DNA from: a virus
Lineage: Duplodnaviria; Heunggongvirae; Uroviricota; Caudoviricetes
Length of the DNA stretch: 21,692 bases
Reading direction: 5' to 3' (one strand)
Virus record (IMG/VR): IMGVR_UViG_2562617086_000013
Made by a program: the position numbers and the translations under genes. Below, one piece after another: positions 6,469 through 9,128 of the stretch. Numbering within the stretch: the first letter of the stretch is position 1; each line of letters begins with the position of its first letter. The notes beneath the pieces are model-generated. The model was given only the letters and a program-made list of their open reading frames with translations. It did not search any database and had not been told where the DNA came from.

Positions 6469-7192
6469 TCTCAACTTCCTCAAACGTCCGTATTAGTCCA
6501 TAAAATCTCTGATTTATAACATTTTTTATTCTTTTAAGTCCATAGTAGTCCGTAACCATCCAGTAGAATCCGGTACTGAATGTGTATAGGATTGTGTATA
6601 TGTTCCTGTTCGGTCTGGATTCCTATACACATGCCTTTAAACGATATGCAGATTCGCCGCGCTAAGCCTGAAGCTAAAGCCTATACATTTGGAGATGGGC
6701 TAGGGTTGTCATTACTTATAGAACCTAATGGAAGCAAGAGTTGGCGGTTCCGCTATCGCTATGCCGGCAAACCCAAAATGATCTCGCTTGGTGTTTACCC
6801 AACGATCACCCTTGCCGATGCTCGTTCCCGTCGTGATGAAGCTCGAAAACTTGTGGCAGAAGGAAAGAACCCTAGTGAGGTTCGAAAAGAGCAAAAGCTA
6901 GCTATGCAAACAGAGTCAGAGAACGCCTTCGAAAAGATAGCCAGAGAGTGGCATCAACTTAAATCTGCTAAATGGTCGGCGGGATATGCATCAGACATCA
7001 TGGAAGCGTTTAAGAACGACATTTTTCCTTATGTCGGAACAAGGCCTGTGGGAGAGATTAAACCGCTAGAGCTGCTGAACGTTCTGCGTAAAATTGAGAA
7101 ACGTGGTGCGTTGGAGAAAATGCGCAAAGTGCGGCAGCGTTGCTCCGAAGTGAACCGCCCCGGGTTTCCTGGAGAGTGTTTTATCTGTGAAC

Positions 7193-8083
7193 TCAGGCTG
7201 CCAGATCATCGTTTCCGATGGAAGCATAATAAGCTTTTTCTGCTTCTGCCGGAGGAGTATGGCCCAGCCTTCCCAGCAATCGTCGATTGTTATACCAGTC
7301 CACCCACGTTAGTGTGGCCAGTTCCACTTCTGCACGGTTTTTCCAGCTCTTACGGTGTATTACCTCCGCTTTGTAAAGACCATTGATGCTCTCAGCCATC
7401 GCGTTGTCATACGAGTCGCCTGTACTCCCTGTTGATGCCAGTAATCCGGCTTCTTTTAGTCGCTCCGTATAGGCCAGTGACACATACTGAGAGCCTTTAT
7501 CGCTGTGATGGATGGTGCCAGACGGACGACGGGCCCACAACGCCTGCTCCAGCGCATCCAGCACGAATGTCGTTTCCATAGACGATGAGACCCGCCCCCC
7601 CACGATGTATCCGGCAAACACATCAATGATAAACGCCACATAGACGAAGCCCTGCCATGTGCTGACGTAAGTAAAATCAGCCACCCACAGCTGGTCAGGT
7701 CGTTCTGCCACGAACTGACGGTTTACGCGGTCGCCTGCGGCAACGGCTTTCCGGCTGATGGTCGTACGGACCTTTTTACCCCGGAGAACACCGGCAAGTC
7801 CCATAACCGCCATGAGACGTGCCACTGTACATCTGGCCACCCTGATTCCTTCCCGTAACAACTGACGCCAGACTTTACGCACACCGTACACCTGATGATT
7901 TTCATCGTATACGCGCTGTATCTCTCTCTTCAGCCAGTCGTCGTGCTGCGCACGGGCACTGCGTTTATCCGGATGATGTCGCTGTTGCTGACAATGGTAA
8001 TACGTTGACGGGGCAATATGCAGTTCGCTGCATACCGGTCCGACCCCGTACTGCTCACGCAGCTTATCCAGCAGTGGCATCAT
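7193..8083 (-). CDS. IS3-family transposase OrfB (DDE catalytic domain)
   Basis: ..[61 protein letters not shown]..: DDE integrase core. Confidence 0.85.
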
Positions 8084-8406
8084 TTTTTCCAGAGGCGGTC
8101 GAACTCCGCCTTCGCAAAATAAGCGGAAGCCTGGCGAAGGATATCGTTACTGCGGCGCAGTTCACGATTTTCACGTTCCAGCTCTTTCAGACGCTGACGT
8201 TCAGCGCTGGTGAGCCCACCATCACCGCCCCCGGTATCCCGCTCATGCTGGCGAACCCAGACACGCAGAGTCTCCGGCGTACAGCCAATCTTTGGGGCAA
8301 TGGAACAAATTGCCGCCCACTGTGAGTCATATTCATCCTGACTTTCCAGAACCATACGAATCGCCCGCTGACGGACTTCGGGGGAAAAACGAGTATTTTT
8401 AGTCAT
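8080..8406 (-). CDS. IS3-family transposase OrfA (HTH)
   Basis: [22 protein letters not shown]..leucine-zipper-like C-terminus; A6 slippery run (TGGAAAAAATGATG) at the orfA/orfB junction for -1 frameshifting. Confidence 0.85.
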
Positions 8407-9128
8407 CCTGTTTACCTCTTTCTCAGGGAGTTTAGTCTCCAGGATTTCCGGGGCGGTTCAAAGTGTTTCGCTACGCAATTGCAACGGGTAGGGCGGAGTA
8501 CAATCCTGCGGCTGATCTCTCCAGCGCTCTCGAAGTACACCAATCCAATCATTTCCCATTCCTAAAAGCTGATGAGATACCTGATTTTCTACGTGCCTTA
8601 GAGGGTTACTCCGGGAGTAAGCTTGTCCAGATAGCCACGAAATTACTGATGATTACGGGTGTGAGAACCATCGAATTACGCGCGGCATTATGGCAAGAAT
8701 TTGATCTGGATAACGCTATTTGGGAAATTCCTGCTGAAAGGATGAAAATGCGTAGGCCACATCTTGTGCCCTTATCATCTCAAGCGGTAGATTTACTCAA
8801 TGAACTCAAGATCATGACAGGGAACTATCGTTATGTTTTTCCAGGGCGGAACGATCCGAATAGGCCAATGAGCGAAGCGAGTATAAATCAAGCCATTAAG
8901 CGTATTGGGTATGGAGGAAAAGTCACTGGACATGGTTTTCGTCATACCCTTTCTACAATCCTGCATGAGCAAGGTTTTGAGAGTGCTTGGATTGAAATCC
9001 AGTTGGCTCATGTAGATAAAAATTCTATTAGGGGGACTTATAACCATGCTCAATATTTTAGTGGAAGGAAGTCTATGATGGACTGGTACAGTAATTTGAT
9101 ATTTGAAAGACTAAAAAGGAGTTAATTT

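Follow-up and report, generated by a model that had tools for sequence, protein, structure and literature searches.

A complete IS629 element interrupts the integrase gene of the P4-like satellite prophage Sp2 in Escherichia coli O157:H7 TW14359

Introduction

P4-like satellites are built around seven core components, namely, Int, Psu, Delta, Sid, AlpA, epsilon, and alpha (PMC10085698). One such satellite, Sp2 of Escherichia coli O157:H7 strain Sakai, has an intact integrase, and its integrase, excision, and replication functions were scored as conserved, yet no circularisation, replication, or packaging could be detected (PMC2669165). This negative result was obtained with and without mitomycin C and in the absence of infection by a P2-type helper, and Sp13, the P2-like helper resident in Sakai, was predicted to be perhaps no longer able to help (PMC2669165).

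IS629 generates target duplications of 3 to 4 bp and prefers prophages and prophage-like elements, which account for 62% of its sites; its site patterns have already been used for strain discrimination (Rump et al., PMC3271280). The 2011 catalogue of these sites lists an insertion, IS.45, at positions 315206-316515 of strain TW14359, with the flanks TGCTCCGAAG / AAGTGTTTCG (Rump, Fischer and Gonzalez-Escalona, BMC Microbiol 11:133, PMC3271280). Among 27 strains, IS.45 was PCR positive in TW14359 only, no IS629 being listed at this site in Sakai or EDL933, and the published table labels its location "pO157" despite the chromosomal coordinates (PMC3271280). The word "integrase" is absent from the main text of that paper, and a consequence for a satellite is not mentioned. 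Here, we describe the element and its target gene in a 21,692-nt stretch of DNA (IMG/VR record IMGVR_UViG_2562617086_000013), referred to below as the window, which was 100% identical to the TW14359 chromosome (NC_013008.1). With an offset of 308055, the coordinates of IS.45 are those of the element in the window.

Results

The interrupted gene belongs to satellite Sp2

Sp2 is a P4-like satellite prophage that lies second in a tandem array at the tRNA gene thrW of E. coli O157:H7 TW14359; in EDL933 it is called CP-933I. Alignment to the full thrW of TW14359 identified the 3' end of this gene (46 nt) where the upstream Sp1 remnant meets the satellite, 163 nt before the integrase start codon; it constitutes the attL of the satellite (Table 1). 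No complete tRNA was found in the window by ARAGORN, and when the window was searched for a second, perfect thrW 3' end that could serve as attR, the 28-mer turned up only once. The right-end sequence of Sp2 recurs in strain MS 124-1, where it likewise bounds a related satellite on the right. Since that satellite combines the same attR with an intact integrase at thrW, the sequence is not an O157-specific lesion, and we set aside a degenerate attR as the cause of Sp2 non-excision, though it may still have some effect on recombination.

The P4-like capsid-hijack and late-control genes span 12814..14392 on the minus strand, and the early region spans 15326..19028 on the plus strand. Psu, Delta, Sid, AlpA, and alpha are all colocated with the integrase, which is disrupted. 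For epsilon, the helper derepressor, the small open reading frame (ORF) at 16137-16358 gave no Pfam match; in Sakai, the homologue of P4 epsilon is located in Sp13 and not in Sp2 (Asadulghani et al., PMC2669165). The integrase domains, the thrW site, and the Psu, Delta, Sid, AlpA, and alpha genes all support the initial annotation, which had named the target as the P4-type integrase of a satellite.

Table 1. Features of the Sp2 satellite and of the inserted element in the window
Feature	Position	Strand	Evidence
Partial tRNA-Thr (thrW) 3' end	6423..6468	+	46 nt identical to thrW positions 31-76
Integrase 5' fragment, codons 1-173 and first base of 174	6631..7150	+	Pfam Arm-DNA-bind_3, Phage_int_M
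AAG target-site duplication, left copy	7148..7150	.	Single AAG in empty site
IS629 (IS1203 isoform), complete, 1310 bp	7151..8460	transposase genes -	Inverted repeats, Pfam, NCBIfam, Rfam
Terminal inverted repeat, orfB-distal	7151..7175	.	25-nt arm
IS629 orfB, DDE transposase catalytic part, 296 aa	7193..8083	-	Pfam rve, HTH_21, rve_3
ALIL pseudoknot	8009..8125	-	Rfam RF01497, 121.5 bits, model positions 1-117 of 117
IS629 orfA, HTH protein, 108 aa	8080..8406	-	Pfam HTH_Tnp_1; NCBIfam transpos_IS3 N-terminal part
Terminal inverted repeat, orfA-proximal	8436..8460	.	25-nt arm
AAG target-site duplication, right copy	8461..8463	.	Single AAG in empty site
Integrase 3' fragment	8464..9125	+	Phage_int_M profile positions 75-96 of 96; Phage_integrase fragment residues 33-197
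lmuA, ABC-3C effector, REase-like N-terminus and CTD6	9129..10135	+	PADLOC LmuA
lmuC, ABC-3C middle component 2, apparently intact	10120..10593	+	Pfam MC2; PADLOC LmuC 9-155 of 156
lmuB, ABC/SMC-like ATPase pseudogene	10559..12404	+	Three-frame translation; PADLOC LmuB
delta/ogr-like	12814-13086	-	Pfam Ogr_Delta; RefSeq name
psu	13092-13643	-	Pfam Psu; RefSeq name
sid	13640-14392	-	Psu-like Pfam match in 250-aa ORF; RefSeq name
alpA/vis-like	15326-15586	+	Pfam Phage_AlpA
Ash/Icd-like	15583-16140	+	Pfam Phage_ASH
DUF5375 gene	16358-16681	+	Pfam DUF5375
alpha primase-helicase	16638-19028	+	Pfam Zn_Ribbon_Prim, Toprim_3, D5_N, Pox_D5
Satellite right end (attR)	20650..20666	+	TTCCTATTATCG-CACCA, thrW 3'-end core minus 1 nt

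The insertion is a complete IS629 and splits the core-binding domain of the integrase

The inserted DNA is a complete IS3-family, IS629-type element by every IS629/IS1203 feature that we examined, as the initial annotation had proposed. Its imperfect terminal repeats, which end in TG...CA, match at 22 of 25 positions (88% complementary; TGAACCGCCCCGG...CCGGGGCGGTTCA), and TGAACCGCCCCGG... is found at both ends. Both transposase genes are intact, orfB matching NCBIfam transpos_IS3 with an E value of 2.6e-92, and so is the full-length ALIL pseudoknot, which stimulates programmed -1 frameshifting from orfA into orfB. RefSeq annotates the copy with a programmed frameshift and names it an "IS1203 family" element. 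Relative to four neighbouring IS629 copies found in O157 genomes, the element shows 0 to 3 nt differences.

The integrase gene spans 6631-9125 in its interrupted form and comprises 393 codons when whole. In the 5' fragment, Arm-DNA-bind_3 covers residues 3-88 and Phage_int_M is matched from profile position 1 to 73 of 96, so that this piece carries the arm-binding domain together with the core-binding domain up to three quarters of its length; the rest of the core-binding domain and the complete catalytic domain are in the 3' fragment. RefSeq labels each fragment a partial tyrosine recombinase. The candidate motifs TGVR, HGFRHT, and AH...RGTYNH for the catalytic R-K-H-R-H/W-Y residues, picked out by eye, all lie in the 3' fragment. 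The insertion point thus follows residue 173 and lies within the central core-binding domain (Phage_int_M, 100-195), and not between the arm-binding and catalytic domains, where it had initially been placed.

Deletion of the element together with one AAG, joining 6631-7150 to 8464-9125, gave a 1,182-nt ORF of 393 codons plus stop, in agreement with the earlier claim that removal restores the frame. The restored gene is identical over 1,182/1,182 nt, with no substitutions, to the WP_001130487.1 gene of strains M1300706002 and ATCC 43890, an allele that about 300 O157:H7/O55:H7 genomes carry uninterrupted. Pfam placed Arm-DNA-bind_3 at residues 3-88, Phage_int_M at 100-195, and Phage_integrase at 206-370 of the restored protein, and it is only in this protein that the three-domain P4-family architecture is found, the gene in TW14359 being interrupted. 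Once joined, the two halves run collinearly with uninterrupted integrases: NCBIfam PRK09692 aligned to residues 2-386 in one stretch (E value of 2.8e-95), with a score of 319 bits, which is below the curated cut-off of that model (434), and the nuclear magnetic resonance structure of the core-binding domain of the CPS-53 integrase (2kj8) aligned without gaps across the junction, RQRCSEVFRYAIATGRAEYNP.

No other tyrosine integrase was found in the window, the only other recombinase being a Pin-type serine invertase (2681-3271), and the integrase of Sp1, just upstream of the window, is truncated as well. In the genomes that carry the insertion, no second close copy (at least about 80% nucleotide identity) was found, the median being one place per genome, and RM19259, in which the site is occupied, matched with just the two integrase halves. 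From the distribution of domains we infer that neither fragment should recombine attL with attR and that the satellite has lost its own integrase.

The occupied site is found in 15 of about 310 related genomes

A 600-bp "empty site" carrying a single AAG matched many O157:H7 and O55:H7 genomes at 100% identity, and 301 records matched at 99% or more. Because empty sites carry one AAG, the copies on both flanks of the element represent a genuine target-site duplication, as opposed to a 3-mer repeated by chance, and the clean duplication described initially is upheld. EC4115, SS17, and most other O157:H7 genomes have the empty site. With a junction-specific query, the exact IS junction was found in 15 complete genomes out of about 310 related ones. 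A count of 26 carriers, obtained by requiring that at least 80% of a 3-kb query be covered, was rejected as too high, because it had merged BLAST segments that came from IS629 copies inserted elsewhere nearby.

With 15 independently assembled genomes and a published PCR result, the occupied site is very unlikely to be an assembly artefact. Six genomes, all among the 15 carriers, also had IS.46, another TW14359-specific insertion. This nesting and the identical junctions are consistent with clonal inheritance and would point to a single origin of the 15 occupied sites. The insertion is real, ordinary, and already published. The unsubstituted integrase halves, the near identity of the element to four other copies, and its restriction to 15 of about 310 genomes all agree with the initial view that the event was recent.

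The Lamassu cargo downstream of the integrase is pseudogenised

Downstream of the integrase lie the remains of a Lamassu/ABC-3C system. A frameshift divides the lmuA gene into two ORFs that overlap, 9129-9545 and 9518-10135, and these match PADLOC LmuA positions 10-140 and 141-333 of 336, respectively, while the Yersinia homologue is a single gene of 336 codons. The lmuB gene is broken into three ORFs by a stop codon at 11216-11218 and by two frameshifts, one in a poly-A tract near 11600 and the other near 11838; PADLOC LmuB positions 3-199 and 428-608 of 610 fall in different ORFs, while the record from Yersinia frederiksenii has a single-frame homologue that is 46.5% identical. The families were also recognised by Pfam (CTD6, MC2, and AAA_23). 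With Pfam and NCBIfam alone, the first cargo ORF and the middle and last ATPase pieces remained unrecognised, and these were identified by PADLOC profiles and by tblastn of the conceptually repaired protein. By the several frameshifts and the stop in its sequence, the Lamassu cargo is pseudogenised, and the break is common to 309/309 E. coli genomes with this cargo DNA.

IS629 has entered Sp2 repeatedly

IS629 was found independently at three other sites of Sp2 in other lineages. The same integrase is hit at nucleotide 830 in two New Zealand strains, and lmuB and an upstream IS remnant are hit in other O157:H7 lineages, so that the left part of Sp2 has received at least four independent IS629 insertions (int twice, lmuB, and the upstream IS remnant). 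The five copies at the four Sp2 sites and in Sp1 all have the same orientation.

Discussion

Our overall explanation, which we hold to be highly probable, is a single neutral IS629 insertion in the decaying Sp2 that cost the satellite its integrase and has been inherited clonally. An IS629 copy would have transposed into codon 174 of the Sp2 integrase gene, duplicating the 3-bp target AAG and dividing the protein so that the arm-binding domain and the larger part of the core-binding domain lie on one side and the core-binding end and the catalytic domain on the other. This would have occurred once, in an ancestor of the sub-lineage that includes the 2006 spinach-outbreak strain TW14359, with clonal transmission since then. 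As Sp2 was already stranded in Sakai despite its intact integrase, the IS adds little, and since, in addition, its helper there was predicted to be defective and Lamassu is dead, the functional effect of the insertion is probably negligible. Superinfection by a helper might still allow Sp2 to excise where the integrase is intact, and the IS would then be of consequence.

The initial annotation had proposed that the satellite is locked in the chromosome and its cargo thereby stabilised. An adaptive version, in which loss of the integrase was selected for fixing the satellite and a useful cargo, could draw on the knocked-out integrase with no second close copy, on the truncation of the neighbouring Sp1 integrase, and on the independent hit at nucleotide 830 in the two New Zealand strains. 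However, the cargo that would be preserved is dead in 309/309 genomes through the lmuA frameshift and the lmuB stop and frameshifts, about 95% of the relatives retain the satellite with an intact integrase, and Sakai Sp2 showed no detectable excision with an intact integrase. The insertions in lmuB and in the upstream IS remnant, moreover, look like untargeted traffic under relaxed selection. We therefore regard selection for such a lock as very improbable, and the proposed stabilisation of the cargo is weak, the more so as IS excision could reverse it. Set against neutral accumulation, the recurrent hits in one orientation might also reflect targeting by IS629 that is specific to the region or to the orientation, or recurrent selection for silencing of the integrase and the cargo operon, but we consider either of these quite unlikely.

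"Locked" does not necessarily mean permanently so, because in Shiga toxin-producing E. coli the IS-excision enhancer IEE can remove insertions of the IS3 family and thereby return the interrupted gene to function (PMC9397093). The lock could accordingly be conditional, IEE-promoted excision of IS629 regenerating the integrase in a sub-population as a kind of switch. IEE promotes IS629 excision in O157 (PMC9943667), and excision of the IS3-family element IS600 by IEE restored lacZ in O121:H19 (PMC9397093); with the IS intact and the integrase halves unmutated, a simple excision would restore the Sp2 gene. Against this, no selective condition favouring int+ revertants of Sp2 is known, and the occupied site is stable in 15 genomes from varied sources, so that we consider a switch unlikely, if less so than the other alternatives. 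O157:H7 genomes harbor several P4-family integrases, one of which might excise Sp2 in trans and leave its mobility unaffected by the insertion. Many complementations between prophages are documented (Asadulghani et al., PMC2669165), but tyrosine integrases of the P4 family require cognate arm and core sites, the carrier genomes contain no other sequence with at least about 80% nucleotide identity to this integrase (only the two halves in RM19259), and Sakai Sp2 did not excise even with its own integrase, which leaves excision in trans barely credible. The reading that we prefer is one of neutral IS traffic in a prophage region undergoing decay.

Its biological weight is small. It serves as a sub-lineage marker in the O157:H7 group that includes the 2006 spinach-outbreak strain and exemplifies how IS629 erodes the pool of defective prophages of O157:H7. 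Should a helper phage prove able to mobilise Sp2 in strains whose integrase is whole, the lineage bearing the IS would be deprived of a means of transferring the island from cell to cell.

With regard to known systems, the insertion is the same as IS.45 of Rump et al. (2011) in flanks and coordinates, that paper being silent on the integrase and the satellite. Other knockouts by IS629 in O157:H7, such as the gne::IS629 O-rough strains and the polymorphisms used in IS-printing, arose by the same mechanism with a 3- to 4-bp duplication and differ in the target gene; the TW14359 insertion lies in a gene other than gne and has no known phenotype. Sakai Sp2 is the same satellite with the same gene order (int, cargo, delta-psu-sid, alpA, and alpha), but it was scored integrase positive, whereas the integrase of TW14359 Sp2 is interrupted. 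In other O157:H7 genomes, the integrase and cargo DNA is 99.9 to 100% identical, EDL933 being included for the cargo. Sp2 shares its architecture and cargo slot with the P4-like satellites of the int-psu defence hotspot (Rousset et al. 2022, PMC9122126; de Sousa et al. 2023, PMC10085698), from which it differs in that its integrase is interrupted and that it stands second in a tandem array and not beside an intact tRNA gene. In MS 124-1, a 98%-related integrase lies beside an intact thrW, and the slot holds an ATP-dependent nuclease and UvrD-helicase pair, while the Y. frederiksenii record contains an intact Lamassu, the system that is pseudogenised in TW14359 Sp2.

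Setting of Sp2 in the thrW array

Positions 6300 to 9300 of the window matched E. coli O157:H7 TW14359 (NC_013008.1, 314355-317355) at 100% identity, and TW14359 genome positions were obtained by adding 308055 to window positions. In RefSeq, proA is followed by an intact tRNA-Thr gene (thrW) and by the degraded lambdoid prophage Sp1, which has its own IS629 copy and a truncated integrase. The array continues in tandem from the intact tRNA (2189-2264 of the comparison stretch L001) through the Sp1 remnant and a partial tRNA to the satellite and a degenerate core. An ARAGORN scan found no complete tRNA in the window. 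The satellite is Sp2, the P4-like prophage known from the O157 literature; it spans about 14.2 kb from attL to attR, of which about 12.9 kb remain when the IS is subtracted.

Features of the window
Feature	Position	Strand	Basis or remark
Right part of Sp1	1-6400		tail-fibre genes, Pin invertase, GIY-YIG gene, AraC regulator, IS remnant
GIY-YIG gene of Sp1	3329-4153	-	PADLOC
IS3-family transposase remnant	5710-6075	-	rve/rve_3, C-terminal part only
Partial thrW 3' end	6423-6468		46-nt copy
int, interrupted	6631-9125		Pfam
IS629	7151-8460		orfA and orfB on minus strand
Cargo of Sp2	9129-12404
delta/ogr-like, psu, sid	12814-14392	-	Pfam
alpA	15326-15586		Pfam
Ash/Icd-like gene, then DUF5375 gene			Pfam; between alpA and alpha
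alpha primase-helicase	16638-19028		Pfam
318-aa ORF	19161-20117	-	between alpha and attR; Pfam and PADLOC without match
attR, satellite right end	20650-20666		degenerate thrW core TTCCTATTATCG-CACCA

The 318-aa ORF may represent a second cargo slot. The motif TGTGTATAGG occurs near both satellite ends, as an inverted pair around the int start codon (6581-6591, plus; 6621-6631, minus) and as a third copy near attR (20571-20581, plus), while MS 124-1 carries it as a tandem pair near attR (L005, about 28450-28480); these repeats are candidate arm-type integrase binding sites. Within Sp1, the GIY-YIG gene gave a full-length PADLOC match to the anti-phage gene PD-T4-3 (E 2.3e-140), so this remnant still holds an apparently intact defence gene. 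The IS3-family remnant, distinct from IS629, has the AraC-type regulator of Sp1 on one side and the partial tRNA on the other.

IS629 interrupts the core-binding domain of the integrase

The initial annotation had described an IS629-like element in a P4-type satellite integrase; these names proved correct, and its account of the sequence was accurate and precise. The element is complete, at exactly 1310 bp, with 25-nt terminal inverted repeats (88% complementary), intact orfA (108 aa, HTH_Tnp_1) and orfB (296 aa, rve), and a full-length frameshift-stimulating ALIL pseudoknot (121.5 bits). AAG is present at both flanks (7148-7150 and 8461-8463). In silico deletion of the IS and one AAG restored a 393-codon integrase ORF, as had been claimed, identical over 1182/1182 nt to the uninterrupted allele of two other O157:H7 strains, and the reconstructed 600-bp empty site was matched at 100% in many O157:H7 and O55:H7 genomes (301 records at 99% identity or more). 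The identity to an intact allele and the widespread empty site thus show that AAG is a true target-site duplication and that the intact integrase is the ancestral state.

The break had been placed between the arm-binding and catalytic domains, which calls for a minor correction. The restored protein contains Arm-DNA-bind_3 (residues 3-88), Phage_int_M (100-195) and Phage_integrase (206-370), and aligns with NCBIfam PRK09692 in one stretch (2-386), confirming that the two halves are collinear. The IS falls after residue 173, the Phage_int_M profile ends at position 73 of 96 and restarts at 75 across the fragments, and the alignment to the core-binding domain structure of the CPS-53 integrase (PDB 2kj8) runs through the junction without a gap, showing that the IS cuts within the core-binding domain. 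The practical conclusion is unaltered, since neither fragment has the full DNA-binding and catalytic set.

The insertion marks a sub-lineage

The insertion has been known in the literature since 2011, when Rump et al. surveyed four O157:H7 genomes for IS629 and listed every site (PMC3271280). Their IS.45 (TW14359 315206-316515; upstream TGCTCCGAAG, downstream AAGTGTTTCG) is the same insertion to the base; it was filed under "pO157" in their site table (Additional file 2), although its coordinates are chromosomal and lie within Sp2. By PCR, TW14359 alone among 27 strains was positive for IS.45 (PMC3271280). In RefSeq, both integrase halves are already annotated as pseudogene fragments flanking an IS1203-family transposase.

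Searching 5426 complete E. coli genomes with a 140-bp query over the left IS junction, we found the exact junction in 15, including TW14359 and RM6067W (spinach), F7386 derivatives, cattle strains 147-149 and two Argentine cattle isolates; EC4115, SS17, TR01 and many others have the empty site. IS.46, a second TW14359-specific site, was present in six genomes, every one within these 15, the pattern predicted by clonal inheritance. Compared with four further IS629 copies from the thrW arrays of these strains, the inserted copy shows 1 to 3 nt differences, and the integrase halves show no substitutions relative to the intact allele. The event is therefore recent on an evolutionary scale, as first proposed, but is not private to one isolate: it marks a sub-lineage with carriers from at least two countries (USA and Argentina).

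Other IS629 copies lie close by. In two O157 strains from New Zealand, IS629 has independently entered the Sp2 integrase gene at nt 830, which is in codon 277 and falls in the catalytic domain (window equivalent 8771-8773), and has duplicated CTT (ERL04-3476, L004 1362-2671); removal of this copy in silico again gave the identical intact gene. Further independent copies were found in the cargo ATPase gene lmuB of M1300706002 and 6535 (TAA; L002 6414-7723), in the IS remnant that just precedes the satellite in ATCC 43890, JEONG-1266 and others (ATC; L003 3001-4310) and in Sp1 (TTA; L001 3674-4983). These multiple insertions fit the published figure of 62% of IS629 sites in prophages or prophage-like elements (PMC3271280). 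All five copies seen in the thrW array, the Sp1 copy included, share one orientation, which is suggestive but not significant. In F8492 (NZ_CP038282.1 4414831-4415037), the 600-bp empty-site query matched by its first 207 nt only, which suggests another rearrangement or deletion in the same integrase.

The cargo is a decayed Lamassu system

Sp2 carries as cargo the genes lmuA, lmuC and lmuB of a Lamassu/ABC-3C defence system that is already dead. A frameshift splits lmuA into two overlapping ORFs (covering positions 10-140 and 141-333 of the 336-position PADLOC profile), and lmuB has an in-frame stop (11216-11218), one frameshift in a poly-A tract around 11600 and another near 11838, which leave Walker A and Walker B in separate ORFs. 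The cargo DNA is at least 99% identical in all 309 E. coli genomes that contain it. Among the matches listed for it, in nearly all the annotated genes of the ATPase region are a short AAA ATPase and two hypothetical ORFs, and none lists a full-length ATPase gene; between strains this region measures 1845, 1846 or 1847 nt, in 1-nt steps.

Does the insertion lock the satellite in the chromosome?

The initial annotation held that the insertion probably locks the satellite in the chromosome, which would stabilise its cargo. In favour of a lock, the interrupted integrase has, judging from its sequence, very probably lost its function, and a close second copy was not found, the matches in the carrier RM19259 being the two halves only; the neighbouring Sp1 integrase is truncated as well. 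Against an adaptive reading, Sp2 of strain Sakai, whose integration, excision and replication functions were scored as conserved, showed no detectable circularisation, replication or packaging, whether mitomycin C was added or not, and the P2-like prophage Sp13 was predicted to be possibly no longer functional as its helper (Asadulghani et al. 2009, PMC2669165). In Shiga toxin-producing E. coli, elements of the IS3 family are excised with the help of the IS-excision enhancer (IEE), and the interrupted gene can thereby be restored (PMC9943667, PMC9397093), so that the block in Sp2 could be reversible.

Protection of the cargo is unsupported, given the dead Lamassu genes and the published Sakai excision data. 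In about 95% of related genomes the integrase is intact and the satellite has nevertheless been retained, which, together with the inert Sakai Sp2, the dead cargo and possible reversal by IEE, undercuts an adaptive lock-in. The insertion is an ordinary IS629 event, most likely neutral, in a satellite prophage undergoing decay, and is chiefly useful as a lineage marker.

Comparison with related satellites

A Yersinia frederiksenii record (NZ_MT039226) contains a P4-like element with intact int, lmuA (336 codons), lmuC and lmuB (609 codons), and our conceptually repaired LmuB aligned to this record from end to end within one reading frame (46.5% identity). The satellite of MS 124-1 (L005 17958-21759) has a 98%-identical integrase and lies directly at an intact thrW. 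The right-end core of Sp2 carries a 1-nt deletion, and the identical degenerate core in MS 124-1 indicates that it is older than the O157 lineage. In the same cargo slot, MS 124-1 has an ATP-dependent nuclease and UvrD-helicase gene pair, Gabija-like by annotation, which shows cargo swapping in the int-psu hotspot.
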